Part shown: positions 37 through 41,470 of the stretch, one piece after another | Numbering within the stretch: position 1 is the first letter of the stretch | Layout of the letters: each line of letters begins with the position of its first letter | Source: a virus | IMG/VR virus record: IMGVR_UViG_3300045988_145033 | Location: 32,001 to 96,000 of that record | Direction: 5' to 3' (one strand) | DNA: 64,000 nt | The notes under the pieces: generated by a model | Databases searched by the model: none | Told to the model about the DNA's origin: nothing | What the model saw: only the letters and a program-made list of their open reading frames with translations | Program-made: the position numbers and the translations under genes

Positions 37-75
37 TTCTACCCATTTTCTTCCTCCTTAAAATTTTAAATATAT

Positions 76-97
76 TGGGTAGGTTTCCCTACCCAAT
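76..97. terminator. GC-rich hairpin (ttgggtagg-tttc-cctacccaa) next to a TATAATATATA motif
   Basis: perfect inverted repeat in an AT-rich intergenic region; same family as the atggtaggc-tttc-gcctaccat hairpins. Confidence 0.4.
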
Positions 98-118
98 TCT
101 TAGTTTATAATATATAAG

Positions 119-1200: not shown

Positions 1201-1538
1201 AGAATATCACCTCTTATTGATTGTGTATAATATTCTCTTAATATTTCTGAATCGCTTTTACCATCGTCCTTTCTACCTTGCTTAAGTTCTTCTATTAAAT
1301 CTTTATGAATAACTCTTACTATATCATCTTCTATTGTAGGTGGTCTAAATACCACCTCATCTTTCTTGGGTTCTTTATACCCAATATATTCCTTTACAGC
1401 TTCCCCTTGTTCTATCCATTTTTGAGCAAGTTCACCTTCAGGGTGTGTTATGAATTCCATTATATTTTCTTCATTTTCTACCATAAATTTATTTATCAAA
1501 CTCATTACTAATTTATTACTCATTTCTGTTACCTCCAT
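1197..1538 (-). CDS. hypothetical protein
   Basis: 113-aa ORF with good SD. Confidence 0.65.
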   Translation of the reverse strand: MEVTEMSNKLVMSLINKFMVENEENIMEFITHPEGELAQKWIEQGEAVKEYIGYKEPKKDEVVFRPPTIEDDIVRVIHKDLIEELKQGRKDDGKSDSEILREYYTQSIRGDIL

Positions 1539-3444
1539 TTTTCTTATTATCTTCTTCTATTTCCTTTTTGTATTTTTCTTCATAAGCTTTCTTGTATGCT
1601 TCATGGTTACTTCTATCGGCATATAATACATCATAGTTCATATGTGATACAGGTTTAAAGTTATCAGGAGATGTCATAACCTCATCAAAGTATCCATAAC
1701 ATAACTTATTTACTATTCCTGTATTATTAACTATACCCTTTTTGTATCCTACAAATGTATAAGACTCATCATCTCTTAAATCTCTTGACCAATCAGGCTT
1801 ATACATTTCTTTGTCTTTATTAGTCACAAATAGACAGTTCTTTAATACAGTTTCTCCAACTATGTATGGAGATTTTAAAAGCTTATTAAGTTCAGCTACT
1901 GGGTCTTTAAACTTAGCTGGATTTTCAAATATAGCCTTTATTTCATTGTATACTTTAGACTTTCTTTTGTTCTTATATACAACGTGCAAGAAGTTATCAT
2001 CTCTTAGCTCAAGTACACCGTCAGTTTCTACAGGGTACACCATTCCATTTACTTCTACGTCAAATCCGTTATAGCATACTCTTTGACTGTCTTTTCTTGG
2101 GTCATCTATTCTATACTTTTCATTTATCACAATAGTACCATTACAGTATATAATATCTGTGTGCTTAACTTGGACATCGATAGTATTATCGTGTCTAAAT
2201 ATTATATTTTCTATAATAGTTATCATATTGTGCTTAGATGATAGATAGTTTTGACCCTCTGGTGCAATGTACTGCTTTACAAACTGAACTCCTAAATTCA
2301 TATTAGCACCAAGTGGTCCTTTTACATTATCAAAATATGTATGCTCTCCTGTACAGTATCTACATATACCTTCTTTAGAATTACAAGTAAAAGGACTTCT
2401 AACCTTAATAGTTTTCCCAATTAAGTCAGTTCTATCTTTAGTTATAAGCTCGATATCTCTTGGGTGATTACTGTCGTGTATCATATATCTATCATTTAGC
2501 TTATCAAGAACTTCTTGTGATTCTACAAAGTATTCTACATATGCTTTTGAATCACACATATAATCTGGATTAGGATTTAAGTAGTTTGGATTGTTAAGAT
2601 ATGATATAGTCTTTTGAAATGCACCCGGGTCTTTTATCTCAAGTTTAGTTATTATAGTTGCACATCTTGAGATATATGATTCATAATAGAAGCTCTCAGG
2701 TGTTGATATTCCACGAAGCCAAGACTCTTTCTCTATATTAGGTATAACTTCATCTTGGTCGGGACGAGAACCTATCATAAACAGACAGTCAACAAACTGT
2801 GCAAGACGAAGTCCAGTTCCTGCTTTTACAAGAGAACGCAAAGGTTGTATATCTTTTTCTTCGACTACTTTTGATATGTAATCAAGTGTGTGCTTTTTAA
2901 GTTCTTCCACTTCAAATAAACTCATATCGTCTCTTTTAACTGGACCGTTTATAATCCAGTCTTTAAGGGTTTCATCAGCATCACAAAGTTCAAATATATC
3001 AAGCATTGATATATCTATCATCTTTTTATTATCGACTACCCAAGCAAACTGAACAAACGCTTCTTTTATTTCACCTACGATAGATGCTACGTCAAAGAAC
3101 TTCATATTCATTCTATTAAAGCACTCATCTTTCACCATTTCCACATATTCATTTTGACTATCAACATTACCAGAACCCGTGAATATAAAATCCTCAAGTC
3201 TTTGCTCTTGTCCGTCGAGTATATGGTGCTTATCAAGAGTTGTAAATAAAAGCCAGTTCATAATAGCTTTAGCAAACTTCATTTTAGCTATCTTCTCACC
3301 TTTATAAGTTACAGTAACTCTAGTTTCAAGCTTTCCTATATCCCAGTAATCATCAACAAACAACTTTGGTGAAAACTCTGCAATAAGTGGTAAACCTAGT
3401 TCATTTACCTTACTCCAGACATCTGCCATTACTTCATTCTTCAT
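1516..3444 (-). CDS. multisubunit RNA polymerase beta-prime-like subunit, C-terminal part
   Basis: KVRSPFTCNSKEGICRYCTGEH aligns to the bacterial beta-prime RSPLTCetrhGvCakCYG segment; GANMNLGVQFVKQYIAPEGQ follows where beta-prime has GEAVGVIAAQSIGEPGTQ. Confidence 0.65.
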   Translation of the reverse strand: MKNEVMADVWSKVNELGLPLIAEFSPKLFVDDYWDIGKLETRVTVTYKGEKIAKMKFAKAIMNWLLFTTLDKHHILDGQEQRLEDFIFTGSGNVDSQNEYVEMVKDECFNRMNMKFFDVASIVGEIKEAFVQFAWVVDNKKMIDISMLDIFELCDADETLKDWIINGPVKRDDMSLFEVEELKKHTLDYISKVVEEKDIQPLRSLVKAGTGLRLAQFVDCLFMIGSRPDQDEVIPNIEKESWLRGISTPESFYYESYISRCATIITKLEIKDPGAFQKTISYLNNPNYLNPNPDYMCDSKAYVEYFVESQEVLDKLNDRYMIHDSNHPRDIELITKDRTDLIGKTIKVRSPFTCNSKEGICRYCTGEHTYFDNVKGPLGANMNLGVQFVKQYIAPEGQNYLSSKHNMITIIENIIFRHDNTIDVQVKHTDIIYCNGTIVINEKYRIDDPRKDSQRVCYNGFDVEVNGMVYPVETDGVLELRDDNFLHVVYKNKRKSKVYNEIKAIFENPAKFKDPVAELNKLLKSPYIVGETVLKNCLFVTNKDKEMYKPDWSRDLRDDESYTFVGYKKGIVNNTGIVNKLCYGYFDEVMTSPDNFKPVSHMNYDVLYADRSNHEAYKKAYEEKYKKEIEEDNKKNGGNRNE

Positions 3445-3780: not shown

Positions 3781-3812
3781 AAAAAAAAATAAAGGTGAGG
3801 ATAAACCCCACC
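3781..3812 (-). terminator. rho-independent terminator (ggtgagg-ataaa-ccccacc hairpin plus U-run on the minus strand)
   Basis: this element (aaataaaggtgaggataaaccccacca) recurs almost identically at 6449-6479 and 46742-46772. Confidence 0.6.
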
Positions 3813-3819
3813 AATATCT

Positions 3820-4479
3820 TTATTCTTCTTCAATATCATCTTCATCATCACAACCAAAGAAATCATCAAAGAAGTATTGAGGCTCTATATATTCATACCC
3901 TCTTTTGATTTCTCTAGTCAGTCTATGACTATCTTTGATTGTGAACCAGTACACATTGCCCACATCAAATACTTGTCCATTTGAAAGGACTATAAGTTCG
4001 TCCCATTCTCCAGAACCATATCTGATTTTCTTATGTCCATTAGGCATGTAGAAATAATGTTCAGTACCATCACTGAAAGTGTACTTTTCCCACTTCTTTG
4101 AATTGTGTGGGTTGTACAAACCTCTTATAGTTTTCCAGATGTACTTACTATTAATAATACAATAGTCATCTGGATGATTTGTATATTTCAACTTTTCTGC
4201 ACCACTTAATATCTTGCCATAGTCTCCAATCCATAGATACGGACTTAATACTGTGATTGCAGAAATATTGAATTTTTCACATTCCTTTATTATTAAAGAA
4301 ACGTACTTCATATTTCTGCTGTGATATTTCTTTAGAGAAGCTCTGTACTTTCTATCTCTGTCTGATATAACTTCTCCAAAGTAACTTACATCGAATCCAG
4401 CAATCTTTGCGATTTTTCTGAATTCTTTAACTAATTTTTCATCTTCCCATTTTTCTTTTAAGTTTGCAAATTTGTTCAT
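3820..4479 (-). CDS. hypothetical protein with an acidic C-terminal tail (FFDDFFGCDDEDDIEEE)
   Basis: 219-aa ORF with strong SD and its own promoter, leader and terminator. Confidence 0.7.
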   Translation of the reverse strand: MNKFANLKEKWEDEKLVKEFRKIAKIAGFDVSYFGEVISDRDRKYRASLKKYHSRNMKYVSLIIKECEKFNISAITVLSPYLWIGDYGKILSGAEKLKYTNHPDDYCIINSKYIWKTIRGLYNPHNSKKWEKYTFSDGTEHYFYMPNGHKKIRYGSGEWDELIVLSNGQVFDVGNVYWFTIKDSHRLTREIKRGYEYIEPQYFFDDFFGCDDEDDIEEE

Positions 4480-4590
4480 AATTAAAACCTCCTAAGTTTT
4501 ATTAAAATTAAATTATGGCTTCTCCCCGTTGGATTGCCTTATCTACGAATATAATATATAAACAAAAAAAAAATAACGTGAATAGGATAA
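4480..4590 (-). promoter_or_regulatory. conserved 5' leader plus class A motif, copy 1 of 2
   Basis: about 110 nt nearly identical to 5198-5310 (shared core aaaacctcctaa-gttttta-attaaattatggcttctcccc-ttggattgcctt ... tataatatataaacaaaaaaaaaa). Confidence 0.5.
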
Positions 4591-4591
4591 T

Positions 4592-4622
4592 AAAAAAAAA
4601 ATAAAGGCTAGGAAAACCTAGC
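4592..4622 (-). terminator. rho-independent terminator (ggctagg-aaaa-cctagcc plus A/T runs)
   Basis: perfect hairpin flanked by A10 and T-rich tracts. Confidence 0.55.
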
Positions 4623-4630
4623 CAATATCT

Positions 4631-5197
4631 TTACTTATTTGGTATTAGATTGCTGTGTCTCTTTTTGTGTCTAAGAGACTTATAAAGAATAAGAAAGCTT
4701 GATAACTTAACTTTAACCTTCTTATTCTTTTTAAAGCAAATTTTAGCACTATTTAAGCCTTGAGGGATTTTTGTAAGAATATACCCCTTTCCAGCTTTAT
4801 ATTCTAAAGTTTCCCAGTCAGGAACAGCCTTTTCAACTTTGTTCCCGATTTTAAAAGTTTCTGTGAAGTTAGTAGCAACTCCACGTTTCAAATCTACAGA
4901 ATAGTAACCACCGTGTTGCCATAGTGATACTATGTCGGCAGTTTTTAATTCTTTCTCAAAATATTTTATATCACGAATGTACCCGTCCCAAACCATTTGA
5001 AATGGTCCTTCGTAGTAGATACAATCGTAGTCTTGATAACAAGTTTCAGGCTTGCCTCTGTATATACAAGACTTTTTGCTGTGTCTTATACTTCTTTTAC
5101 CGAAGTATAAATCGAATGTAGGCTCAACCCTTGTAGCCTCATCGAACATGATTTTCCCTAACTTTCTCATTTTTGCAACCAATTTAATATTTCTCAT
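4631..5197 (-). CDS. hypothetical protein
   Basis: 188-aa ORF with strong SD. Confidence 0.7.
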   Translation of the reverse strand: MRNIKLVAKMRKLGKIMFDEATRVEPTFDLYFGKRSIRHSKKSCIYRGKPETCYQDYDCIYYEGPFQMVWDGYIRDIKYFEKELKTADIVSLWQHGGYYSVDLKRGVATNFTETFKIGNKVEKAVPDWETLEYKAGKGYILTKIPQGLNSAKICFKKNKKVKVKLSSFLILYKSLRHKKRHSNLIPNK

Positions 5198-5310
5198 TTC
5201 TAAAACCTCCTAAAGTTTTTAAATTAAATTATGGCTTCTCCCCATTGGATTGCCTTTGTCTTAGTATATAATATATAAACAAAAAAAAAAATACTGTAAG
5301 AATAATAAAT
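5198..5310 (-). promoter_or_regulatory. conserved 5' leader plus class A motif, copy 2 of 2
   Basis: see 4480-4590. Confidence 0.5.
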
Positions 5311-5348
5311 AAAAAAAAAAAATAAGAGGACGGGCGTAGCAAACCCGT
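5311..5348 (-). terminator. rho-independent terminator (gacgggcgtagcaaacccgtc)
   Basis: GC-rich hairpin after an A10 run, immediately downstream of the radical SAM gene stop. Confidence 0.55.
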
Positions 5349-5359
5349 CGTTATTTATA

Positions 5360-6112
5360 TTAGAAGATTTCGAAACCACCTTTCCAGTAGTTTCTAGTCC
5401 CTATCTTAAGAGTAGGAAACTCTTCCTTTATCGCTTGTGCGATATGAGTAACATCGTCCATTTCGGGCACGGGGAAATCACACCCTTGGACTTTATTATA
5501 CTTTCTAAGCGTCCAGAATACATTATCGAACTTAGATATGACACTTGCGATTTCTCTAAGTTCGTCAAGGCTTGTGTCTCCGAATACTGGAGTTCTTATA
5601 TCAACTAAAACTCCATTTTCTTGACACAATTTAATAATTCTTTCTTGGTCCATAACTGGTTTGGCAACTCCAGTTATTTTAACCAATCTGTCACTATAGA
5701 ATGCCTTGAAATCTATAGCAACATAGTCTAGGTATTTTACTAGACTTTTAACTAGCCCATAACTGCTACCATTATGAGCTATTGATATTTTTTGTCCAAA
5801 TTTGTTCATTACATATTGGGCTATATGTAATGATTCAGAAGGATAAGCCGCGGGGTCTCCCCCGCTTAATCTAATCCTTCTTCCTTTAGAAGCTTCAATA
5901 TCTATCAAAGCTTCTAAGTCACTCATTTTAATGTCGTGAGTGTTGATGACGTTGCCAGCATCATCGTAGAATTGACAGTCCCTTTTACAGTAAGGACAAC
6001 TGTAATTACAATCACCAAAAGAAACGATTGCCATTTCTTCTGGTGTTCTATTGAATGCTTGTAGGAAGTAAGCCTTTCTCACTTCCAAATTTTTTCTTTT
6101 AATTAATTTCAT
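5360..6112 (-). CDS. radical SAM enzyme (activase, QueE or viperin-like size class, 250 aa)
   Basis: CNYSCPYC (CxxxCxxC) cluster motif near the N-terminus and an SGGDP (GGEP-like) motif; no SPASM extension. Confidence 0.8.
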   Translation of the reverse strand: MKLIKRKNLEVRKAYFLQAFNRTPEEMAIVSFGDCNYSCPYCKRDCQFYDDAGNVINTHDIKMSDLEALIDIEASKGRRIRLSGGDPAAYPSESLHIAQYVMNKFGQKISIAHNGSSYGLVKSLVKYLDYVAIDFKAFYSDRLVKITGVAKPVMDQERIIKLCQENGVLVDIRTPVFGDTSLDELREIASVISKFDNVFWTLRKYNKVQGCDFPVPEMDDVTHIAQAIKEEFPTLKIGTRNYWKGGFEIF

Positions 6113-6124
6113 TTTGTTACCTCC

Positions 6125-6215
6125 TCAGGTATATTAAATTTAGACGGTGAGCTCTTAAGCCTTCTTAAGTTTACTCTTGTCCCTACATTTATTATATATA
6201 ATTGAAAAAAAAACG
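6125..6215 (-). promoter_or_regulatory. class A promoter plus a roughly 90-nt conserved leader containing a CTTAAG-loop-CTTAAG hairpin (copy 1 of 3)
   Basis: near-identical to 19078-19170 and 40096-40190; copy 2 carries the compensatory pair cttaaC/Gttaag. Confidence 0.55.
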
Positions 6216-6249
6216 TAGAAATTACAGCTAATGATTAAAGGAACATAGA

Positions 6250-6297
6250 AAAAATAAGAGAAAGTATACTCTTATATCACCTCCTTGAGTATCTTTC
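6250..6297 (-). terminator. long hairpin terminator (aagagaaagtatactc ... gagtatctttctctt) followed by a U-run on the minus strand
   Basis: imperfect inverted repeat of about 14 bp downstream of the 22-aa peptide gene. Confidence 0.45.
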
Positions 6298-6307
6298 TCT
6301 TAAAAAG

Positions 6308-6376
6308 TTAAAGCCTAGTAATTGTCCAAATTGCCGCTATGGCGTAAGCCGCCAACATTAATACTAATGCGAACAT
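6308..6376 (-). CDS. unannotated 22-aa hydrophobic peptide (MFALVLMLAAYAIAAIWTITRL)
   Basis: perfect SD AAAGGAGGTGCCAT before the ATG; own class A promoter at 6424-6447 and terminator at 6250-6297. Confidence 0.45.
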   Translation of the reverse strand: MFALVLMLAAYAIAAIWTITRL

Positions 6377-6448
6377 ATGGCACCTCCTTTAAATTATCCC
6401 GGTGGAACTTTCATTCCGTGGGTTCTACATTTATTATATATAATTAAA

Positions 6449-6479
6449 ATAAAAAATAAAGGTGAGGATAAACCCCACC
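6449..6479 (-). terminator. rho-independent terminator, second copy of the ggtgagg/ccccacc element
   Basis: identical to 3781-3812. Confidence 0.6.
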
Positions 6480-6488
6480 AATATTTCT

Positions 6489-7265: not shown

Positions 7266-7285
7266 TCTACTTATATAATATATAG
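7266..7285 (-). promoter_or_regulatory. class A motif (tctacttatataatatatag)
   Basis: motif family member upstream of 6489-7229. Confidence 0.4.
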
Positions 7286-17105: not shown

Positions 17106-17339
17106 CTATACCCTCCACATACTCATCATATACATTAAAGCAACAATAGAAAAACCTATTACAAATGCTATTCCTCTTGCTTTTCTTTTATTACCTTTTT
17201 TGATATGCTTTTTGTATCTTTTTATATTAAGTAGTACAGCATATTGTAGCATCACCATAAATATACCTGTCTTCATAATAGACGTGAATATAGTAGCGAT
17301 AACGTATTTTAAATAAGCATCACTCATTATCTTCATCAT
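17106..17339 (-). CDS. small membrane protein (two hydrophobic segments)
   Basis: 77-aa ORF. Confidence 0.55.
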   Translation of the reverse strand: MMKIMSDAYLKYVIATIFTSIMKTGIFMVMLQYAVLLNIKRYKKHIKKGNKRKARGIAFVIGFSIVALMYMMSMWRV

Positions 17340-18822
17340 AATTAGAACCTCCTTTTTTATGAGTTATATCTATTTCTTTCCAGTCTTTGAATTCTTCATC
17401 AAAGAACTTATAAAGCTTTCTATAATATCTTTTAGTTTCAGAAAAACTCTTATCCACAGCTTTAATGTATATTCCAGTTTCTCCACCAACCCGTCCGTTT
17501 CTTCCTGTAGCTTGTTTAAATATCGAGCCCCCTGCATAAGTTTCCATATCTATTGTAAGTTTAATCTTAGATATATCAAGTCCTCTACCAATACTGTCAG
17601 TAATTGATATTATAAAAGGTTTTGTAAGAGCATTCGCTCTTTCTCCTTTTGGGAGTTCTGAATGAAACTCAGATACATGCTTTGCTGGGATATTAAACTT
17701 ATCCATTACCCATTCCTTTATAAGCTTACAATTTTCTATCTTACCTGTCATTATAACTATCTTATATCCCTTGTCCATTTCATATATAGGTATAGCGTGA
17801 GTTTTTATTATCTTCTCTAGTATATTAAAATACCCTTCCGATGCTATAGCTACAGCCATATGCTTATCAGGAACAAACTGTCCTTTGAAATTATAACAAG
17901 ATTGTCTTACTTTTTGTAAAGGTTTTGACTCCCAACCATAAACGTAAGCTATTCTATTTGGCTTTTCTGTATAAAACTCTTTACCATATTTTGGTATAGT
18001 TTTAATCATCTTTTGAAAAGCACTATCATCAAACTGTCCATTTTTAAATGTAGTTGCTGATAAATATAAGTTATATCTCACAGAAGTTGTAAAGTCTAGC
18101 TTTAGCATACTGTCTACTTCTGTATCAAACTCATCAAATATCTTAAGTCCTATTTTATTTTTAATACACCATTCAGCAACGAATGGAGAACCTTTTTGCT
18201 CTATTATAGAACGTAGAGTTGCGTGAGTGGTTACAAATACTTTATATCCTAAATCTTCTTCATAGGTAGATAAAAACCATTTAGAACCATTCATAGCACA
18301 CACGTATCTTTGACGAAGCTTTGTATGATTAGCAAATGAACCTTTCTCTCCTGCCCATTGATTTAAAAGAGTATTTGTCTTAACTAGAACCAGTATATTA
18401 CAACCAAGTTCTGATGCTATAGCAGTTGCTGTAAATGTCTTACCTCTTCCTGTAGGCATATCTATTATAACTTGAGTTTCCCCACGTCTAAATTCCTTTA
18501 AAGCTAGAGTTATAACTTTCATTTGCTCAGGAAACGGCTTTTTATTAACATTAAAGAATTTCTTATTATCACAAGGGAATGCAAGTCCTTTATGAATACT
18601 TCCATATACATTCAATTTATTCATAAGAAATGTATCTCCTATACCTCTTGGAACTCTTAAGTTATCAGGAGATAATAGATAACAAAATGGTTCTTTTTCT
18701 TCTGTGATATAGTTTACTGTCGATAAAGAATCCATTAAATCTTGAGCATAAAACATTTCTCTTTTCTTATTATTTTTATCAAATTCTATTTTATAAAAAG
18801 TGGTAAATTTAGTAATCTTCAT
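17320..18822 (-). CDS. SF2 (DExD/H-type) helicase
   Basis: Walker A MPTGRGKT, motif II DEFD, SAT motif (YLSATT). Confidence 0.75.
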   Translation of the reverse strand: MKITKFTTFYKIEFDKNNKKREMFYAQDLMDSLSTVNYITEEKEPFCYLLSPDNLRVPRGIGDTFLMNKLNVYGSIHKGLAFPCDNKKFFNVNKKPFPEQMKVITLALKEFRRGETQVIIDMPTGRGKTFTATAIASELGCNILVLVKTNTLLNQWAGEKGSFANHTKLRQRYVCAMNGSKWFLSTYEEDLGYKVFVTTHATLRSIIEQKGSPFVAEWCIKNKIGLKIFDEFDTEVDSMLKLDFTTSVRYNLYLSATTFKNGQFDDSAFQKMIKTIPKYGKEFYTEKPNRIAYVYGWESKPLQKVRQSCYNFKGQFVPDKHMAVAIASEGYFNILEKIIKTHAIPIYEMDKGYKIVIMTGKIENCKLIKEWVMDKFNIPAKHVSEFHSELPKGERANALTKPFIISITDSIGRGLDISKIKLTIDMETYAGGSIFKQATGRNGRVGGETGIYIKAVDKSFSETKRYYRKLYKFFDEEFKDWKEIDITHKKGGSNYDEDNE

Positions 18823-18832
18823 TTATTTCACC

Positions 18833-18852
18833 TCAAAAGGCTGTTTTTCACA
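18833..18852 (-). promoter_or_regulatory. class B motif (sense TGTGAAAAACAGCCTTTTGAGGTG)
   Basis: motif directly abuts the SD of the helicase gene. Confidence 0.5.
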
Positions 18853-18879
18853 ATTTTAAAACAAAAAAAAAAGAGGAAC

Positions 18880-19068
18880 TTAATCCCCTTTGTGTTTGTT
18901 GAAGTAGTACCATGCGTCTGCCCACATAGTAAGCAGAGCACCACTCCATCTTAGACTAGCTAAGACTTTGATTCCGGCGATTGCTGTCGCCAAAGTTATA
19001 ATACCGAAATATATCACAGTCATTATAGTGGCTGCGATAAGCATAGCAATGATTTGTAGATTTTTCAT
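18880..19068 (-). CDS. small membrane protein (62 aa, two TM segments)
   Basis: hydrophobic; preceded by the conserved class A leader. Confidence 0.6.
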   Translation of the reverse strand: MKNLQIIAMLIAATIMTVIYFGIITLATAIAGIKVLASLRWSGALLTMWADAWYYFNKHKGD

Positions 19069-19077
19069 ATTGTACCT

Positions 19078-19170
19078 CCTTAAGGTATTAAATTAAGACT
19101 GTAAGCTCTTAACCCTTGTTAAGTTTACTCTTGTCTTCTACTATTATTATATATAATTGAAATGAAAAAT
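19078..19170 (-). promoter_or_regulatory. class A promoter plus conserved leader, copy 2 of 3
   Basis: see 6125-6215. Confidence 0.55.
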
Positions 19171-19202
19171 TAAGGAACGTAGATAAAAAAAATAGAATAT
19201 CT

Positions 19203-19463
19203 TTACGGGCAGAAGATATCTATTATATCGTCCAAGCAGTCAAGAATAACCGCAGCTATCTTTCCGATGAACGATTTCTTTTGAAGTTTCTTTATCACCC
19301 TGTCCTTTCTTGCGTCCATTTTGTCTATATAATTGAAGATAAACCTAGCCAATGGACTCCATCTAAGTCTCTTCTTTAAAACCTTGTACGCGTAACTCTT
19401 AACAATGTCGCCCGCAGCATATGTCAGAGCTTTACGTACGAATAAACCGAATAGATACCACAT
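19203..19463 (-). CDS. hypothetical protein
   Basis: 86-aa ORF with class A motif at 19491-19516. Confidence 0.6.
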   Translation of the reverse strand: MWYLFGLFVRKALTYAAGDIVKSYAYKVLKKRLRWSPLARFIFNYIDKMDARKDRVIKKLQKKSFIGKIAAVILDCLDDIIDIFCP

Positions 19464-19539
19464 GATATCACCTCCTTTTAACTCGGCTATTCCTATTATT
19501 ATTATATATAATTGAAAGAAAAAATTGCGAATTTTATAT

Positions 19540-23945: not shown

Positions 23946-26900
23946 TTATATAGATTTTCCTTTACAAATTCTATCAATAAGTTTATAAAAGTCATCATTA
24001 GAATTCATACCAGAACTTCCCATTGTAACTGGAGTAGGGTTACCATTGACCGTAGTCATTACATTGTATCCATTTAGTGCAAGATTTGTCTTCTTACCAG
24101 TTACAGCTTCTATGAATGTAGCAAATAGCTTATTCATATTACGTAACTCTCCTAAAATAGCTTCAAGTAATTTAGTTTCACCATTTTGTTCCATACCTTG
24201 AGAACGATTTATGAATTTTACCAAGTTTTCATTTATTTCATTTAAAATACCAGTCTGAGTTTGACTATGTTTTGCTGATGCTTGTATACCAGCTTTTATC
24301 TTATCTGTAGATAAAGCAATAGAGTTTGATGATTTAGCAACACCATCATCACTACCTTTTCCAGATAAGTTCATAGTCTTTGTATATTGCTCTGCCGCAT
24401 TATATGTCATATCACGAGATACACGTCCATATCCTGCAAGAACTGGCTCAACCACTTTTTCTTTAAATGTACCATAAGCTCCTTTTATGATATCTACCAT
24501 AGAAGCAGTTTTCTTTGCAAGTTTTACAGATGCTTTTTCTTTGTATATCAAAATTGCTTTTGCCATACGAAGACGTTTGTCATTTACTGAAACTTGCTCA
24601 GATGAGTTCTTTTCCGGGTCATTTATATAAATCTTACCATTTACCATCTCTTTACCTATTATGAAATGTGGTGCACCAGTTGATGATACTGTAAGAAGTA
24701 TAGGAGAACGTCCGGCACGTAGTTCACTTACAAATCTTGCAAGTACCTTATCATTAAATATAACAGAACGTATTTTATGCTCAGCTAGTATATTTACGAA
24801 ATACTTCATAGGCGTACCAGCTTTAGGTGATGATTTCATAGCAACAGCTTTACGTACTAAATCTTCCATATTGTATCTTATCTTTAACTTATCAAGAAGC
24901 ATAGCCATAACAGCAGGACCACAACCAGCTTCTCTAAATCTAAGTCCTCCACCCATTCCAAGTTTATTCCACTTTCCTGAGTTTTGTGATACGTGTTTCA
25001 TAGGTCCAAAACCTTCGTTACCAGCTTTTAATCCTTCTTGTTGCTTTGCTGACGTTTTAACTTTTTGAGTTACGCTATATGGGTCAAAGGCATCAACAAC
25101 ATATCCGTCAAACCCCATAAATTGTGCTGCTTCTTTTGTAGACGGATATTTAGATGCTGAGAAATTAGCAACTTCTCTTCCTCTTACGTGTCCATCTCCA
25201 TCTTTGTCCATTCCGTGATTTGCTTTATATTCCGCTGAACCACGCGAATAAACTGGCTTATCTGGATGATATCCTAAAGACTTAGGATAATGTAAGTAAG
25301 AATATAAGTTATATAGGTTAGGAGGATATTTACCCAAGCCTTTTATCCATCTAGGTCCAACTCTTTTTAATTGCTCAAGTGGCGTGAAACTTCCCGGAAG
25401 TTCATTAGGTGCAAACCCCCAACCTTTTCTGTAACTCTTCATTACTTGGAAAAGTCCAGATGCTCCACCGTTACTATTATATGCGTCAGGTTGCCAAGTT
25501 GACTCAGAATAAGATACAGCTAACATATTTCTCGCAACATCTACTCCCCATTGAGAAACAGCATAATCCCACATTTCTTTCATTTGCTTCCTATATTGTG
25601 GGTTCTTAGCTTTTTGCATAAGCCCCATATTCTTAGTGACTCCAGTTATAACATTTCCACCACTAAAATCTCCTGAACTTGAATCTTCTGCTACAACATT
25701 GCCGTTTTCATCTAGGTTAAATCCTAAAGATGTTGCTAAATTTTTCACAGTAGCACCTATATCGAAGTTTTTGATAAATTCATATCTATCTCCAAATTTA
25801 GAAGCATTGTCATCATCTATCATAGCTTGCATATCAGATTTAGCTTTTGTAGCTTCTTGAGTTGTTGTATCAACTTTTGTAAGCTTACCGTCTGGAGTTA
25901 CAGGTCCAAATCCTTGATAAGCTCCATATCCGTCACTATCAGTTTTATATTTATCATACAACTTACTATTCTTTTTAGCTATGTCTTCTTTTTCTTTTTT
26001 ATCTTTCTCTTCTTGTTGCTTTTTAAGTTTTTCTTGATTTTCTTTTCTCTTCTTTGCATCTTCGTCACGTTTCTTCCAATAATCTGGGTCTTTTAAATCA
26101 TAATCGCTATCAGCATCTGGGTCATATCCATAATCAGTCTTATCAACATCACCATTTGCTTCTTCTTCACGCTTAGCTTTATATTCTTCATATTTGCTCT
26201 TACCCCATTCTTTTAATTCTTCTTCTTCTCTCTTCTTAGCTTCTTCTTTATCACTTTCTTCTTTATTAAAAGCTTCTAGTGCTTCTTTTGATTTCCATTC
26301 GGATTCATCAACACCAGATACCCATTCGTAGAACCACACAACCATATCATCTATAGGGATAGCAGCAAGCCACCATACTTTAGATGATGCTAGTCCCCAT
26401 AATAGTTCCACAAAACCTGATGCAAATTTCATACCAGTAGTTATGTAATCAGAACCTACGTTGAAATAATCTCTTGCGTGTCTCCAACCATGAATAAAAT
26501 CATATATTGCAAATATTCCGTCTACTATAGCTCCTACTGGTGGTAATGCGTAAGATGCAGAACGAGTAACATTTTTAGCTGTCTTCTTAGCGGCTTTCTT
26601 TGCAGCCTTTTTACTCATCTTTTTAGCAACAACTTCTATTCCGCCTTTCTTTAAAAGTTTTTCAGCAAATGCTTTAGTAAGCTTATAATTAAGAAGTTTT
26701 CTTAACATCTTTTCTATAAACTCTTTAAACCATTTACCAATAGCGGTTTCTGTTATTTGCTTTACTCCACGTTCAGCCAGATTTTGAGCACCTTTTCTAA
26801 ACGCTTCGTTTTTAAATAAACCATTTTTAGCTATTCTAAGTCCAGTTTGTTGAATATTATGAGTTACAGTTTCTCCAGTTCTTCCAGTAGAGTTTATAAA

Positions 26901-29900
26901 GTTTTCGTATTGTTGTCCATAAGAAGAATTAGCAAACGCAACAAGTGCTCCACCACCAACAAGTGCTCCTATTGCCGGAAGTGCTTTTACTATAGCTCCA
27001 CCCATAATCTTAGAACCAAGTCCTTGCATTCCAAGTTTTGTGAATATATTACCTAAGAATTTAGAACCTCCACCACCAGAACCAAACATAGATGCCGCTG
27101 CTCCAGCTATAGTTCCTAATACACCATTATCTTTCACTTGTTGTACTAAAGTTACCTTACCATCTTTATCCTTTTTCTCCTTATCTTTTTTGTCTTGTCT
27201 TTTATCAATGTCAGCATATTCTGCACCGTCTTTCATCTTAGGTGATTTACCTTTTCTTCTCTTTCCAGACATAGCAGATTTGAAGTCTTCTTTATATCCA
27301 AGCTTATTATACATAGATTCAGCATATTCTAAATCTACTGCACCAACAGCTTTTACAACTTCAACTACTCTTACATTATCTATTATACCGCCTTCAACCC
27401 AAACTTTATTAGTTCTATTCTTTCTACCAAATAGAATATTCCATACACCGGTTACTAAGTCTTTACCTCTTTGATATATCCAGTCAAATACCTTACCAAC
27501 TGAAGTTACAAGCCAAGTAATACCTCTACCTATCTTATCAAGACCTTTATCTATGATAGTTCCTATTCTATCAGCCGCACCCATAACTATAGCAGGAAAA
27601 TTAGATATAAGTTTCCAAGCAAGTCCAAAAGTAGCATTCCATAAAGTTCTACCGAATATCTTAATACCACCCCATATCTTGCCAGCAAACATTCTAAGTC
27701 CTAAAAGCATTTGAGTTCCCCAATACTTAATAGATGAGAATACCCCTTTTACGAACCCACCTATTCTTGAAAGCACTGGTAGTGCCATATGTTTCCATAT
27801 AGATTTAGCTATCCATAAAGGAAACTTAATAAACATAAGCTTCATAGCACCTAATGTTTGCATAGTTGCTGATACGACAGGTCTTACAAGTTTATTATAA
27901 AGTCCAGAAAGTAGAGCTCCCGGTAAAGCCTTAAGTCTTCTCCAACCGTTTTTGAATTTTTGTCCAAGCCAAGAGAAGTGCTTATTCTTTACATTCTTCG
28001 CACCAAAGCCGGGAATAGGTCCATATTTACGAACAAGAATTCTTTTAATATACTCAGCATTATATGCAAGAGATGAGGTTTGAAGATTTATAGTATCACG
28101 AAGTTTTTCAGCTTCTTCTAAATACTTCTTTCTCCAATTCTTTATAAGGATATAAAGTTCGGAACGTTTACCTAAATACTTAGCAAGAGCCGACCTTTGT
28201 GTCATATTCTTGTCAAAGGCTTGTATACCACCTTTTATCTTTTGAGCAACATTTACAACACCATCTCTCATCTTCTTAATCATAGATACCTTTATTGGAT
28301 TTCCATTCTCATCTAAAACTTCAGGTTCGTCTTCATTTGGGTCTTTTTTTCCAAATTTAGATTTAAGCCAACCTTTTATAGCGTTGACATAACCTTTCTT
28401 TCCTTCTTCTACATTTATACCTTCTTTGTGAAGAAATTCTTCAGTAGTTTCACCTTTCTTCAAAGCCTCGGCTTCAGGCATAGTTTTACCTATGACTTCT
28501 CCTATTTTATTTACATATGCTTTCTTTCCTTTTTCTAGCATATCCTTTATATTCTCATCTGTAGTAGATGAAACTACAGCTTCTTTAGGACCTACTTCCT
28601 CAGCTTTAGCCCCAGCTAACATAGTTCCAATAGTTATCTTTTCTTCATTTGTTAATGTCTTCCATTGTTTTTCTTTAAAGAATATCGCTTGCTTTGCGTG
28701 TGCTTCTAAAGTAGCAATATCCACTGTCATATCAGGTTTTCTATCAGGGTCTGCATATTCTACAGTTCCTTGAGAAGATATAAAGTATACCACAATATAA
28801 TGAAGATTATCAGTTTCAAAATCTGATAACTCTACTATTACACAATTTCCAGAAAAAGCACCTTTCATAAATGACATAAATGTACCAGCTTTAGGATTTA
28901 CAACATGGGTTGCATCTATTCCAAATTTTCTAGCGACGCTCATTATATATGAAGCTGGAACTCCATTTGTAGAACCTGTCCAACCAAATGATTTCTTAGT
29001 TAGATATTCAGGTTTTATAGAAAATCCTGTAGCACGAGATAAAGCCGTTGCAAGAGCTGATAGTCCACATAAAGTTCCATCTCCACCAATATTTGGTATG
29101 ACTTTACTTTTTATAGATTTCGCTATATCTTTTGCAACTCCTTTTAGATTAAGTGCTCCACTTCTTCCTTTTATACCCTTTCCTGATTGCCCTTCTTCTT
29201 CTTTAGCTTTGGCTTTTTGAGCTTCATCGACTTTAGCATCCGCTTCAGCTTTCTTCTTAAGATAATCAGCTTGAATTTCTTTACCTCTTTTCTTAAGTCT
29301 AAAAGCTTCGAGTCTTTCATCTAAAGTTTTATCTTTTACTTCTTGTACGTCTTGACCTTCCATACGTTTAGCAATAGCAGCCTTTTTAGCATCTTTTGCT
29401 CTCATCTTAAGTAAAAGCTTTTTATCACTTTCAGAAAACTCTGAAGCTTCTTGTACGTCTTTATCTGTCATACCTTCAGAACGCATATAAAGGTCTTCTT
29501 TACGTCTTGTAGCATTTTCATAAGCTTCAACATTTTTAACACCTTCTGGAGTTTTAGCTGTATGAGAAGCACTAAATGAAGCTCTTCTATCAGCTATATC
29601 GTCAGCGTCCGTTCTTCCAGTTACTAGAGTTCTAAACATTTTAAACGGAGCCGCAATTATTCTACCTATGAATTTAAACATTCCACCGAATATCTTTTTA
29701 AATACTCCAGCAATAGGGTCTATTACCTTTTCTTTCATAGTTTTAAAGAATGGTTTTACAAAGTCATTTGTAAATGAACCCGTAAGTTCTCCTTTTATAC
29801 CAGTTATAGTTTTAAATATACCAGAAGCTGTATTTGACATAAATTCCTTAATAGGAGTAAATGTTTGCGAAAGTGGCTTCCATATATCTTTTCTAAACCA

Positions 29901-32900
29901 TATAGCCATCTTTCTAGGAGCTTCTTTTATAAATCCAGTAAATCCTTTTGTAGCTTTTGTAAGTATTCCTTCTTTACCAGACTCTTTATCTCCTATAAGC
30001 CAAGTCTTTAAGTTTCCTAAGAAAGTTCCTTCTTCAGTTCCAAAAAGCATTTTTCTAAAACCTTTAGATTCCCCAGCTATAGATACAGCAAGTCCAGCAA
30101 GAGCCGCATTAACTGGTCCTATAAAACCAAGAGGTGTTGCAGCCGCAAGTATTCCAGAAAGTCCAGCAATAGCTCCACCTGTAACAAGTGCTCCTTTTGT
30201 AATTCTCATCATCTTAGCACGTGCTTCTTTAGCTTTTTCACTATTTCCAAATAATCTTTCAAATAAGTTAGACTTATAAGCATACACTCCAACTCCTAGA
30301 GCGAGAGCACCTAAAGCTAGAGGAGATGCAAGTCCTGTAAGTCCTATTATTGGACCAAACATTGACTTCTTCAAGAACTTGAAAGCTCCTATACCTGCCG
30401 CACCTATCATTGCGGCTTTTGATGCTTTCCATATAGTATCTTTATTATCTTCGTAAAAGTTCTTAGCTTTATCTTTCATATCTCCCATTTTTTCTTTAAA
30501 AGACTTAGCTGTATTTTCTACTCTTTCTTTCATTCTATCGACAGCTTCTGATTTACCAGATTCTATACCGTCAACAGTTCCATCATCTTTTAATTTAATA
30601 GAAGAAGCAACTGATGATACTGAATTTTTAGCATCTTTCCAAACAGACTTCGCTTTATCTATTTTTCCGTCAACGTTAATATCAGACCTTACTTGAAATC
30701 TATCTTTTAACTCAACTATCTTCTTTTTAAACCAGTTAGACGAATATATTATATCTTTAATTTCTTTTCTTATATCTTCGTCTTTCTTTTCTGGGTCTGT
30801 AAGTATTTCAAGTATTCTATCTTTATCTTTATCAGTCACATCGAATTTATCAAGTTCCATTTTAATAGATTCTATTTCTAAATTTCCGCCTATTATAGCA
30901 TCTATTGTAGCTTGGTGTCCTAGAATAGTATCAATAGAAAATACATCTGTATCCATCATATTTTTAAACCACTCTTTATCTTGAACTCCTATTCTTTCTC
31001 CAAGTTTAGTATTTCCTATATCAACTATAAAGTCCTTTATCTTATTTTTGAACATAGTTCCAGCTCTTCTATTATCTTTATAGAATTCATCTATAGATTT
31101 AATAGCATCTGGAGTTAGAGTTTCTCCTAATATATTTCCAACAAGTCCATCTTTATTCTTAAGAGATACCTTACCTTCATTCTTTAAAAGATATTCATAC
31201 TTAAACCCTAAAGATTCAAGTATCTTTTTCTTATCTTCTTCCGATACATTGCTACCGCCTCCAACTCCACCAGTTAGAAGTTGTTGAAATATAGCTTTAA
31301 GTCCTACGGCAGAACCTTCGTCTATAGAACCTGAGTTATTTAAAAGATGGATAACTCCATTATTTCTTGACTCTAAACTTTGCTCTCTAAAGAAATTATT
31401 AGAATCTCTTATCCAAGTTTCCATAGATTTATCAAGTGATGCGAACTGGTCGGCTCTATTTTTCTCAGCTTTATTCATCAAATCCACGAACTTATAAAAA
31501 TCTGATTTTGAAAGTTCATCAGACGATAAATTAAGATTTGATAGCAGTTGTCCGTAATCGTGTTCCTTGAAGTTAGTTAAAGTGTAACCCTTTTTAGATA
31601 GTTCTTCCATTACGATTTTAGTAAAATCATTAAGTCTTTGCTCATCTAAATTCTTCTTATCACCATCAGACATTTGAGATTTGAGCATTTCAGCTAGTTG
31701 TCTGTATTCGTACTTCATTGTAGGTCTATTATCTTCAAATTCTTTACGAACTGTAGATAATGTCTTAAACTGTCCTTTATTATAATCATACGTAGTTCTC
31801 TCATTTCCAGTTAAAGCTGAAGCAATAGATGATAGATATGTAGGAATTACTGTAACTATAGCTTCTCTTGTTATGCCATCGAAAAATACATGCTTTGATT
31901 TATCATACTTATCTGTACGAAGATTAGATTCAACGTCAGGTTTTATCATAACAGACCTACCGAAAGTAGATAAAGTTGCATTAGATGATAAAGATGCAGT
32001 TCTTGCTTGTTTATTAATAAAGTCTTGAGTTGTTCCAAATACTCTTTCTACCTTTTTAGCAATTTTATCTAGTCCAAATAGTTTATTAAGCTGATTGTCT
32101 ATAGCAAAGGCACGAAGTGCTGCAAATGGATTTGAACCGAATGCTTGCATAAGCATAGGAAGTGCAGCCATAGCAAGTCCCCAAGTTCCTTGAAACTTTT
32201 CTTGGTCGATAGCTCTACCTAATTCTCCACCTAAAGCCTTTACACCTTGTCCCATTTCCCCTTTACGAATAGCTTTATACCATTCTGGAATATAGTCTCC
32301 ACCTCTATCATCTTCTTTATTTATCTTAGGTAAATAGTAATCTGATAGCATTTCTTTTAATGCTTTATGCTCTGTAAGCATCTCTGTTTGTATAGCAAGT
32401 AACTTTTGTTGTATACCGACAGATTGAGTTAAGCTATCAGCCATAGTTCTATAATACATTTCATTTTTAAGCATTTGAGATTTAATATCAGAACTTGTAG
32501 CTACGAGTGTATTATTTATGGAAGTTGCTGTTTGCATAAATCCTTCCATCATCATCTTTTGCGATGCTTTAGTACCACCTTGTATACTTTTAGATAATCT
32601 TCCTACAGCGGCATATGTCGCTATACCGTTGGTAGCACCAACGGAAGGAGAGCTTTGTGAACTACTATCAGAAGACTCGCTATCTCTACTCGAATCCCCA
32701 CTCTCGAAGAAAAAGTCATCTTCACCAAAATCAAAGTCTGCATCAAGTCCATACATCTCATCTTCAGATTTATAGAATTTACCAGATTTAAGTCCAGCAA
32801 ACGCATTCTTTGTAAGAGATGATACGAATTGATAAAGAGATGATTGTTTTATTTTATTTTTAATTCCGGAAAAACCAGACGTATTTCTACTATCATTAAA

Positions 32901-39137: not shown

Positions 39138-39158
39138 ATGGTGGCGTGACGCCACCAT
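39137..39158. terminator. bidirectional hairpin aatggtggcg-tg-acgccaccat between convergent genes
   Basis: perfect stem. Confidence 0.55.
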
Positions 39159-39159
39159 A

Positions 39160-39471
39160 TTATTCTTCGACTAAATCAGCATTTGACTTATCTAAATCAA
39201 ATCCAGCATCTTTTAATACTCTTTTTAAAAACTCGTATCTTTCTAAATCAAACTTATCTAAAAAGCCTTCATCTTCGTTTCTTATTTCCATAGCATCAAG
39301 TACCCCTCTTACAACAGCTTGTCCAGCTATTTGAAATTCTGTATAGGGCAGTTGTTCTAGTGATTCTACAATAGTTGCTACAAGAGTAGTTATCTGCGAT
39401 AGAAGTCTTACATCGAACTTATGATTTATTTTTGTTGCTTGTGATGGCATATTAAAAACGTCCAGTTTCAT
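39160..39471 (-). CDS. hypothetical acidic protein
   Basis: 103-aa ORF; SD AAGGAGAG overlaps the end of the upstream 50-aa ORF. Confidence 0.65.
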   Translation of the reverse strand: MKLDVFNMPSQATKINHKFDVRLLSQITTLVATIVESLEQLPYTEFQIAGQAVVRGVLDAMEIRNEDEGFLDKFDLERYEFLKRVLKDAGFDLDKSNADLVEE

Positions 39472-39473
39472 AG

Positions 39474-39626
39474 TTATTTCACTCTCCTTAAAAAAAATAA
39501 AGGATGTGCAGTCCCTTATCTTTTGGTTTATAGACTTATGATAATAAGAACTACTACCATAAATCCAAGTCCGACAGTTACTACTTGGACTTCACTGTCA
39601 GACAAAATTGATTTTAAGTGTTTCAT
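39474..39626 (-). CDS. unannotated 50-aa membrane peptide (MKHLKSILSDSEVQVVTVGLGFMVVVLII...)
   Basis: ATGA overlap with the upstream 36-aa ORF; SD GGGAGGTAGAAT. Confidence 0.45.
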
Positions 39627-39733
39627 ATTCTACCTCCCATAATCGCGTGTGCGATAGAATACAAAATTATTAGGACAATGATGATAAATACTGAAAACAT
39701 CTTGTCCTCTAAATCTAAATGTGGGGCTTTCAT
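39623..39733 (-). CDS. unannotated 36-aa membrane peptide (MKAPHLDLEDKMFSVFIIIVLIILYSIAHAIMGGRI)
   Basis: ATGA overlaps at both ends; SD GGGGTGG. Confidence 0.45.
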   Translation of the reverse strand: MKAPHLDLEDKMFSVFIIIVLIILYSIAHAIMGGRI

Positions 39734-39948
39734 ATAGTCCACCCCACTACAATTAAACTAGCAAAGAATGCACATACAGAAAACAAACCGAAGTACATTT
39801 GTTTTCTTATTGCATCCTTTCTTTTACGAGCTACTATTTTTCTTCTAATAGCTCTATTCGCTCTGCATTCTTCAGAATGTTGATATGCAGAACGAGCTTT
39901 GTTGTAATTGGCATTTATTTCTTTTTCAAAAGGAACGTCTAGTCTCAC
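39730..39948 (-). CDS. 72-aa basic protein with a C-terminal TM segment (GTG start)
   Basis: its GTG overlaps the TAG of the upstream 47-aa ORF (TAGTG); the listed 84-aa ORF begins at a TTG with no SD. Confidence 0.45.
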   Translation of the reverse strand: MRLDVPFEKEINANYNKARSAYQHSEECRANRAIRRKIVARKRKDAIRKQMYFGLFSVCAFFASLIVVGWTI

Positions 39949-40091
39949 TAGAACCACGCTCCTTTCATTGAAGCTATTGCACAAGCAATTATTGCTATAG
40001 CAAAAGCTCCTAAAGAGATGATAGTACCATAAATGGTATCTAACTCTCTTTCTCTTTCCTTGTTATAAATTTTCTTTTCTTTCTTTTTCAT
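39948..40091 (-). CDS. unannotated 47-aa protein with a basic N-terminus and one TM segment (MKKKEKKIYNKERERELDTIYGTIISLGAFAIAIIACAIASMKGAWF)
   Basis: ATG at 40089-40091 preceded by GGGAGGTAAAACT; first gene after the conserved class A leader. Confidence 0.5.
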   Translation of the reverse strand: MKKKEKKIYNKERERELDTIYGTIISLGAFAIAIIACAIASMKGAWF

Positions 40092-40095: not shown

Positions 40096-40190
40096 TTACC
40101 TCCCAAGGTATTAAATTTAGACGTCGGAACTCTTAAGCCCTCTTAAGTTTATTCCTTATCTCTACTTTTATTATATATAATTGAAATGAA
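40096..40190 (-). promoter_or_regulatory. class A promoter plus conserved leader, copy 3 of 3
   Basis: see 6125-6215. Confidence 0.55.
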
Positions 40191-40713: not shown

Positions 40714-40721
40714 AATATCAC

Positions 40722-41285: not shown

Positions 41286-41305
41286 TTATTGCCTCCTTTA
41301 TATAA

Positions 41306-41446: not shown

Positions 41447-41470
41447 ACTGTCTCCTTTTTCATATTAAAA

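Follow-up and report, generated by a model that had tools for sequence, protein, structure and literature searches.

The subject of this report is a promoter-and-leader cassette of ~90 nucleotides (nt) that occurs three times in a 64,000-nt stretch of viral DNA (positions 32,001 to 96,000 of the IMG/VR virus record IMGVR_UViG_3300045988_145033), referred to below as the window. The structured leader of the cassette is a real, well-supported RNA motif that is kept by compensating mutations. The reading favoured here, to which a probability of roughly 0.45 is given, is that the promoter is an early promoter of a virion RNA polymerase (RNAP) and that the leader is a 5′-terminal RNA module protecting or marking early messenger RNAs (mRNAs).

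All three copies lie on the minus strand at the positions given in a preliminary description of the window (6125-6215, 19078-19170 and 40096-40190) and align over ~95 nt that begin in a T-rich tract and run as far as the start codon. The promoter module, TTCAATTATATATAATAA-N3-TAG, is AT-rich and near-invariant, contains a perfect TATAAT and follows a T-tract; ~24 nt of the promoter motif hardly vary, and the 18-mer TTCAATTATATATAATAA is exact in every cassette. With up to three mismatches allowed, the 18-mer has seven matches in the window versus 1.4 expected by chance, and the hairpin pattern AGTAAACTTAAGNNNNCTTAAGAGC has three versus 0.00 expected. Each leader folds into the same arrangement, comprising a three-tier hairpin of helices P1, P2 and P3, which lies 6±1 nt past the promoter and has an invariant UAAA/A internal loop, a single-stranded tail and a mini-hairpin that encloses the Shine-Dalgarno (SD) sequence. 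The genes that follow are those named in the preliminary description, namely a radical SAM gene, a gene for a 62-amino-acid (aa) protein with two hydrophobic segments and an operon of small open reading frames (ORFs), of which there are four or five. The parts of the three cassettes are listed below.

Copy 1
6189..6206, minus: promoter 18-mer TTCAATTATATATAATAA, with TATAAT inside it, a T-tract upstream and no -35 element; no call in a sigma-70 two-hexamer scan
6183..6185, minus: TAG, 3 nt past the 18-mer; predicted start at the A, 6184
6142..6182, minus: hairpin with P1 GGAC/GUCU, P2 GAGU/GCUC, P3 CUUAAG/CUUAAG, internal loop AAA/A and loop AAGG
6135..6141, minus: single-stranded tail AAAUUUA, adjoining the 3′ end of the hairpin
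6118..6131, minus: SD mini-hairpin UACCU-GAGG-AGGUA, enclosing GGAGG at 6120-6124; start codon at 6110-6112
5360..6112, minus: radical SAM gene, 250 aa (Pfam PF04055, E=2.6e-11; PHROG radical SAM / QueE-like)

Copy 2
19144..19161, minus: promoter 18-mer; TAG at 19138-19140
19095..19137, minus: hairpin with P1 AAGAC/GUCUU, P2 GAGU/GCUU, P3 CUUAAC/GUUAAG and loop AAGG
19089..19094, minus: tail AAUUUA
19073..19087, minus: SD mini-hairpin; GGAGG at 19075-19079, ATG at 19066-19068
18880..19068, minus: gene for the 62-aa protein (two hydrophobic segments); terminator behind it at 18870-18891

Copy 3
40168..40185, minus: promoter 18-mer; TAG at 40162-40164; no call in the sigma-70 scan
40119..40161, minus: hairpin with P1 AGAU/GUCU, P2 GGAAU/GUUCC, P3 CUUAAG/CUUAAG and loop AGGG
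40112..40117, minus: tail AAUUUA
40097..40110, minus: SD mini-hairpin; GGGAGG at 40099-40104, ATG at 40089-40091
39160..40091, minus: operon of four or five small ORFs, including a 47-aa ORF from the ATG at 40091 and a 103-aa ORF

Structure, covariation and spread of the hairpin

The case for an RNA motif is carried by covariation. Pairing statistics were taken from a MAFFT alignment of 82 distinct leaders, in which 90.6% of the helix cells are paired and 11 of the 14 pairs show double-sided changes. Double-change cells number 119 in the observed alignment versus 28±4 after shuffling, and none of 500 shuffles matched the observed covariation score, the percentage paired or the double-change count. 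Sliding the 3′ partners by 1-3 columns reduces pairing to 22-44%. Helix P3 is 96% paired, with covariation in all six pairs and 25 different arm combinations, nearly all of which are complementary; P2 is 94% paired, one of its pairs being AU in 46 sequences and GC in 30; and P1 is 80% paired, a value that partly reflects alignment noise. An alignment fitted to the covariance model gave pairing numbers like those of the MAFFT alignment. RNAalifold recovered only 5 base pairs (bp) of P3 from the MAFFT alignment; an explicit structure and pair counting were required for P1 and P2 because indels misalign the fourth P2 pair.

Within the window, the change from CTTAAG/CTTAAG to CTTAAC/GTTAAG in P3 of copy 2, from which selection on RNA structure was originally proposed, is a genuine compensatory pair, and the proposal is strengthened by the further copies, in which the stem changes are compensatory rather than disruptive. 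The original account of the hairpin was incomplete in that it missed a second compensatory change, in P2 (GAGU/GCUC to GGAAU/GUUCC in copy 3), as well as the three tiers, the SD mini-hairpin and the promoter copies that lack the full hairpin. Across the alignment, G·U and U·G cells (73-77) outnumber A·C and C·A cells (20-21), a bias which indicates that the fold forms on the mRNA-sense strand rather than as a DNA cruciform or a template-strand hairpin.

The three tiers comprise 14-16 bp in total and are separated by internal loops of 2/3 and 3/1 nt. The minimum free energies of the three leaders in the window range from -15 to -16.4 kcal/mol (z -1.6 to -3.1), with values of -16.4 (z -2.65), -15.0 (z -3.05) and -15.7 kcal/mol (z -1.56) for copies 1, 2 and 3, whose covariance-model scores are 66.1, 66.5 and 65.6 bits, respectively. 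Conservation of the unpaired positions was counted over 78 distinct sequences. The internal-loop residues A14 and A15 and the single 3′ bulge A35 are invariant in 78 of 78, and the last two loop bases are GG in 74-77 of them (NNGG loops AAGG, AUGG, AGGG, ACGG and others). The tail AAUUUA is conserved in 71-78 of 78 per base (AA in 78, UUUA in 71-77). The hairpin has neither a GC-rich stem nor a U-run and so is not a terminator; separate, unrelated terminators are found upstream.

The flanks of the SD sequence also vary together. In ~86 leaders, the 2-3 nt after GGAGG co-vary with the 5′ arm of the mini-hairpin: TCG occurs with GACU (33 of 34), TA with UACC or AACC, and TAC with GUAC. The resulting arms (GACU...GGUC, UACC...GGUA, GUAC...GUAC and AACC...GGUU) form 4-5 bp. 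A permutation test gave 4.65 versus 4.28±0.06, a result that is significant but weak and that derives from only 4-5 sequence types. These data are suggestive of an SD sequence that sits in or beside the loop of a mini-hairpin, and either compensation or the inheritance of modules could have produced the pattern.

Beyond the window, three complete relatives, the phages JD-Fnp4, JD-Fnp6 and JD-Fnp7, were scanned, together with IMG/VR. Searching IMG/VR for exact matches gave ~100 loci, the majority in human oral metagenomes and some on contigs of 174-178 kb; from these loci came 141 unique downstream sequences, ~85 of them with the hairpin leader. A covariance model built from the hairpin region alone identifies three copies in the window, eight in JD-Fnp4, seven in JD-Fnp6 and seven in JD-Fnp7 (55-73 bits), and other sequences in the window and these genomes score 24 bits or less. 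The search for more copies therefore extends the family to 7-8 full hairpins per genome and ~100 instances overall. Over all fetched DNA the model has 98 matches (78 distinct sequences), and the promoter lies 5-8 nt upstream of the hairpin in all 98, including the 25 strong matches in the window and the three genomes. Three of the 98, with the variant core TATATATTATAA, had been missed by the 18-mer search, and no promoter-less hairpin is present among the 98. The cassette is, as first described, a promoter followed by a transcribed leader. The distance from the hairpin to the SD sequence is variable, the latter beginning 76-90 nt after the start of the 18-mer. Rfam gave no matches over the whole window at gathering thresholds; for 6080-6230 at E up to 10, the best scores were 12-18 bits versus thresholds of 35-100.

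Promoter class and phage RNA polymerases

Upstream of the cassette promoters only the T-tract is observed, with no -35 element, and the sigma-70 two-hexamer scan called none of them. With two or fewer mismatches, the 18-mer occurs five times in the window and 9-10 times in each of the three complete relatives; every occurrence points the same way as the gene behind it, and N3-TAG, a leader, an SD sequence and ATG come next. A looser core, TATATAT(A/T)AT(A/T)(A/T)-N2-4-TA(G/A), marks ~13 intergenic sites on the minus strand of the window, all of them gene-oriented. Approximately three-quarters of the extended 18-mer promoters are fused to the conserved structured leader. When 185,579 genomes were scanned for the exact 18-mer, single chance matches in unrelated AT-rich taxa were seen among the matches listed. 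ATGTAG in the start region was not taken for a leader peptide, as its ATG gives way to other bases in the variants ACATAG, ACGTAG and AAGTAG.

The promoter is reminiscent of those of jumbo phages that encode their own RNAPs. According to a review, every such phage has a conserved AT-rich motif of ~10 nt near position -10 that belongs to presumed early operons and is read by the virion RNAP (PMC7598289). The early consensus of phage AR9 is AAATATATATTAT-(6N)-G, with G as the start (PMC5312081), and the early motif of phiKZ has a T-rich tract upstream of -19 (PMC8244752). In the 82-sequence alignment the A of TAG is invariant, and its spacing resembles the AR9 geometry. In a 244-kb viral contig (L040, 233-333), a transfer RNA gene for glutamine begins 8 nt after the promoter variant TTTAATTATATATTATAA, which is consistent with a start in TAG. 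On this analogy, the motif is quite likely read by the virion RNAP of the phage.

Five other IMG/VR contigs of 147-208 kb (L047, L055, L078, L083 and L095), which represent a separate phage group, contain the exact 18-mer followed by a wholly different leader, AGGTGTATCAATATATC..., with a GC-rich hairpin just ahead of the SD sequence. The promoter is thus more widespread than the three-tier hairpin.

The window is ~90% identical to the Fusobacterium nucleatum phages JD-Fnp1, JD-Fnp4, JD-Fnp6 and JD-Fnp7 (175-180 kb), which are described as myoviruses from saliva in a publication that is silent on transcription. No paper tying Fusobacterium phages to multisubunit RNAPs was found in the literature. 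Five RNAP beta/beta′-like genes of the jumbo-phage type are present in the lineage (PHROG families, E=1e-13 to 1e-110; two examined in the window and three on JD-Fnp4). One of these, ORF 1516-3444 on the minus strand, matches chain 7S00_D of the solved structure of the AR9 non-virion RNAP (E=6e-23 in a PDB sequence search), and its operon is headed by a promoter of the early type with its core at 3754. AR9 likewise has early promoters ahead of its non-virion RNAP subunit genes. The second, at 53693-56485 on the plus strand, is not preceded by an early-class promoter, as would be expected of a late gene for a virion RNAP subunit. Pfam gave essentially no matches when RNAP and phage-nucleus shell families were sought among the RNAP-like proteins and hypothetical proteins of 530-600 aa; PHROGs and the PDB sequence search were needed to recognise the polymerases. 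From these matches the phage is inferred to be a large, RNAP-encoding myovirus of Fusobacterium of the AR9/phiKZ type, and it belongs to a group previously unrecognised as RNAP-encoding. The co-regulated, possibly early regulon of the preliminary description is larger than the three members it was given, and its assignment to the early phase fits by analogy only, with RNAP-encoding jumbo phages.

Other leaders of the class and cassette borders

The leaders behind promoters of this class, of which ~12 are found in the window, are of several kinds. Three have the three-tier hairpin. Two others, whose promoter cores are at 4560 and 5277, are paralogues; their hairpin has two tiers and an AACGG or AAUGG loop and is followed by a AUAAUUUAAUUU tail. 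These two make up a second cassette family, at 4476-4605 and 5194-5322 on the minus strand, composed of a T-run, TATATATTATAT, N3-TAG or N3-TAA, the two-tier hairpin (GGC-AA-UCC-AAYGG-GGA-GAA-GCC), AUAAUUUAAUUU, an SD sequence and ATG. Similar to the main hairpin, this hairpin has GG at the end of its loop, an A-rich internal loop and AAUUUA, and it is not picked up by the main-hairpin covariance model. Two further members of the promoter class are the following.

6398..6448, minus: truncated leader behind a promoter with one mismatch (6431-6448), in which P1′ CCC/GGG is joined to P2 GGAAU-GAAA-GUUCC, a GAAA loop replacing P3
19499..19516, minus: the same 18-mer, promoter of an 86-aa ORF (19203-19463); its leader is short and unstructured

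The truncated leader (core at 6442) continues with AUAAUUUAAA, an SD sequence and a 22-codon ORF, and its counterpart in JD-Fnp4 (L011, 32710-32746) scores 24 bits with the covariance model. The leader with its core at 116 (60-116, minus strand) has a perfect 10-bp hairpin, AUUGGGUAGG-GAAA-CCUACCCAAU (-17 kcal/mol, z -4.4), followed by an AU-rich stretch and an SD sequence; the same palindrome scores as a terminator on the plus strand (74-97). An AU-rich stretch precedes the SD sequence in all leaders of the phage, the hairpin-less ones included. The common design is a hairpin directly past the start, an AU-rich stretch and a strong SD sequence, and the three-tier form is its most elaborate and most conserved version.

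Several cassettes coincide with differences in gene content between close relatives. The unit 18875-19492, comprising the 86-aa ORF, cassette 2 and the 62-aa ORF, is replaced in JD-Fnp4, JD-Fnp6 and JD-Fnp7, with breaks 6-11 nt past the 18-mer at 19499-19516 and at the terminator at 18870-18891. A 2.65-kb module (3836-6488) containing cassette 1 and the radical SAM gene is absent from JD-Fnp6 and JD-Fnp7 and is flanked by identical minus-strand terminators (GGTGGGGTTTATCCTCACC plus a T-run) at 3794-3812 and 6461-6479; the GGTGGGGTTTATCCTCACC terminator also precedes a cassette in JD-Fnp4 (L010, ~7700). This arrangement suggests terminator-mediated exchange of modules. JD-Fnp6 and JD-Fnp7 have an extra cassette and gene at window position 7285/7321, and there is an extra small ORF behind cassette 3. 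The indel 39934-40075 likewise abuts promoters of the class or terminators; the indel 40714-41452 is not associated with a cassette. Across the genome, strong terminators are located directly ahead of each promoter.

The operon of copy 3 encodes two or three peptides of 22-39 aa with one hydrophobic segment each. Between it and a convergent 347-aa ORF on the plus strand lies a bidirectional terminator (39138-39158), a GC-rich palindrome of 9 bp flanked on either side by T-runs. A 500-aa ORF (17320-18822, minus strand), annotated as "Cas system-associated" in JD-Fnp4, starts 48 nt past the terminator of the copy 2 unit and is the first gene of a long operon in which a chaperonin-like gene is also found. 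The region 18822-18891 ahead of it shows no early-class promoter, and this operon would be served either by terminator read-through or by an unrecognised class of promoter. Elsewhere in the window, a 3029-aa ORF (23946-33035, minus strand) has a C39-type cysteine peptidase domain at residues 2701-2811, a weak SLT lytic transglycosylase match at residues 2493-2537 and a middle part that diverges from the JD-Fnp relatives (83% identity, gaps). A search of the window for transfer RNA and transfer-messenger RNA genes gave no matches.

Possible roles of the hairpin and comparison with known systems

In the favoured mechanism, the injected virion RNAP would read the motif and start at the A or G of TAG, which would place the hairpin ~3-4 nt from the 5′ end of each such early mRNA. 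At this position the hairpin would most likely act as a 5′-terminal protection by limiting the access of an RppH-type pyrophosphohydrolase and RNase J, and the AU-rich tail would leave the ribosome-binding site accessible. Repeated 7-8 times in each genome, the ~90-nt module would also be a movable unit of expression and supply homology for recombination where variable early genes begin and end. A protective or marking role is favoured because the element is tied to the 5′ end and not to the SD sequence, because unrelated hairpins fill the same position behind sister promoters, and because the host, F. nucleatum, has RNase J, RNase III, RNase R and PNPase and lacks Hfq, ProQ and CsrA (PMC11039985). 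Structure at the 5′ end stabilises mRNA, as RppH and the 5′-end-dependent RNases require single-stranded 5′ ends (PMC3997798).

Several observations weigh against this reading. The start at TAG, the early class and the identity of the polymerase are all drawn from analogies, and the host sigma-70 RNAP may be the reader of the motif, given the perfect TATAAT in the 18-mer. A start at the A of TAG gives the 5′ end AGA, that is, three unpaired nucleotides with G at position 2, and an end of this kind is readily used by Bacillus subtilis RppH (PMC3997798). Three of the ~12 leaders in the window are without structure, and two have GNRA mini-hairpins that are individually not significant. None of seven sampled AR9 early leaders folded with a comparable 5′ hairpin, so that the element is not general to virion-RNAP transcripts and is specific to this lineage. 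Finally, protection does not need the invariant loop GG, the internal-loop A residues or AAUUUA, and a stabiliser therefore accounts for the conservation only in part. Recognition of the three-tier version by a specific partner as well is suggested by the invariant unpaired bases.

Such a partner is central to the leading alternative, in which the hairpin is the operator for an RNA-binding protein, of phage or host, that tunes or shuts off early translation in the manner of T4 RegA or of the dual-site binding of CsrA/Rsm. Such a protein would bind at the NNGG loop and the A-rich internal loop, and perhaps also at the SD sequence in the second mini-hairpin. The unpaired bases stay invariant while the stems turn over, two hairpins with G-rich loop bases lie 25-35 nt apart with the second holding the SD sequence, and 7-8 copies per genome are spread as expected for a regulon. 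However, it is the promoter and not the SD sequence to which the hairpin keeps a fixed distance, the host is one without CsrA, Hfq or ProQ (PMC11039985), and the fifth loop-adjacent base is in the stem and variable, so that no constant GGA is formed. No candidate protein was found; in tblastn searches of the window and the three genomes with CsrA and T4 RegA queries, nothing scored better than E=0.5. An operator of this kind is considered unlikely. More generally, the fixed spacing to the promoter, the variable spacing to the SD sequence and the unrelated hairpins behind sister promoters argue for a role linked to the 5′ end or to transcription over an operator that overlaps the SD sequence, and the translational operator or processing site suggested in the preliminary description is not established.

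A related and slightly less probable possibility is that the three-tier hairpin, by virtue of its invariant NNGG loop, A-rich internal loop and AAUUUA tail, is an identity tag on transcripts from virion-RNAP promoters that is read by a dedicated factor or by the polymerase itself. The tag would direct terminator read-through, 5′-end modification, selective routing, translation or timed destruction, and, if this is true, it would be a new class of phage early-mRNA recognition element and not a generic stabiliser.

Cleavage offers another explanation. The hairpin and tail would then be an endonuclease site that matures or inactivates early mRNAs, with RNase III acting in the helix or an RNase Y/E- or RegB-like enzyme acting in AAUUUA. 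Phage RNase III sites, such as the T7 R-sites and those of SP82, have a stack interrupted by internal loops, and the helical stack of the leader is similarly broken by conserved internal loops. The host has RNase III, and the invariant AU-rich single strand beside the structure fits the features of RNase E/Y sites (PMC3997798). On the other hand, 14-16 bp is short for RNase III, which acts on approximately two turns (20 bp or more, mostly continuous), and the truncated relatives retain just 3-8 bp. The AU-rich stretch before the SD sequence is, moreover, common to all leaders and may be an open ribosome-binding region. A processing site is accordingly judged improbable.

Still less probable is a promoter-proximal element that acts on the polymerase, such as lambda nut/boxB or HK022 put, and allows terminators to be read through. 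Its strict coupling and fixed spacing to the promoter, the strong terminators that punctuate the genome ahead of promoters, and the long operon that follows the terminator of the 62-aa gene without a recognisable promoter of the class are all in keeping with this idea. However, most hairpin-led units are short and end in a terminator, past which a new promoter lies, so that read-through is not obviously needed, and neither a boxA-like element nor sequence similarity to nut or put nor an Rfam match was found.

The weakest proposal, that there is no RNA function and that the cassette is a gene-converted, PeSL-like repeat module or its inverted repeat a DNA operator or cruciform, draws on the cassettes at indel breakpoints between close relatives, the identical terminators around the 2.65-kb variable module and the high sequence identity of paralogues, but is very hard to sustain, as gene conversion yields neither 25 complementary P3 helices nor an AU-to-GC switch in P2 (46 versus 30 sequences) and there is no constant half-site of the kind that a dimeric DNA-binding protein requires. 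The DNA operator or cruciform was rejected on the diversity of the helices and the G·U strand bias (73 to 21).

No publication deals with gene expression in the large F. nucleatum phages, candidate therapeutic agents against a bacterium associated with cancer. The present finding gives the probable early promoter of the lineage, and hence a predicted early regulon, and adds a new covariation-supported RNA motif, with its ~100 instances, that is absent from Rfam. The portable module of ~90 nt is a ready expression part for Fusobacterium, in which genetic tools are scarce, and it offers a clean setting in which to study the protection or marking of early phage mRNAs when the host has no Hfq, ProQ or CsrA. 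The association of repeated cassettes with gene-content breakpoints also carries the PeSL concept beyond T4, to an unrelated group of phages with a putatively different polymerase.

Similar to the virion-RNAP early promoters of the jumbo phages AR9 and phiKZ, the cassette promoters have a conserved AT-rich motif near -10, an upstream T-tract and no -35 element, are repeated ahead of many operons of small genes, share the core TATATAT(T/A)AT and have a conserved purine 6-8 nt downstream; the phages also have in common split beta/beta′-like RNAP genes. The main differences are that the genome here is ~180 kb, under the 200-kb cut-off for a "jumbo" phage, that the host is Fusobacterium, that the invariant block is longer (18-24 nt) and that a structured leader is fused to the promoter, a 5′ hairpin being absent from all seven AR9 early leaders sampled. 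A conserved motif that its authors left unexplained is depicted in the 5′ untranslated regions of early transcripts of AR9, a phage with two multisubunit RNAPs (Lavysh 2017, Fig. S3; PMC5312081); the folded AR9 leaders have no shared hairpin.

In T4-type phages, promoter-early stem-loop (PeSL) cassettes are likewise small and conserved, contain a promoter and recur through the genome; the SD sequence and start codon form their 3′ terminus, and they accompany ORFans and places where close relatives differ by an indel or a gene replacement (PMC2839356, PMC4122927). PeSL promoters are of the sigma-70 type with -35 and -10 elements, and the PeSL stem-loop is a terminator just upstream of the promoter (PMC4122927), whereas the cassettes described here have no -35 element and a hairpin that is downstream, transcribed and covarying.

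The pairing of two hairpins with G-rich loop bases, one with the SD sequence and ~25-35 nt apart, is reminiscent of CsrA/RsmA sites. Here, in contrast, the base after the NNGG loop varies, the host is without CsrA and none was found in the phage by tblastn.

The 5′ stabilisers of Escherichia coli ompA and papA, T7 phi10-gene 10, B. subtilis aprE and phage SP82 also place a hairpin a few nucleotides from the 5′ end, as is predicted for the cassette leader, with an AU-rich stretch and a strong SD sequence behind it. Such stabilisers have no sequence requirement, whereas in the three-tier hairpin the loop and internal-loop bases are invariant across 78 variants.

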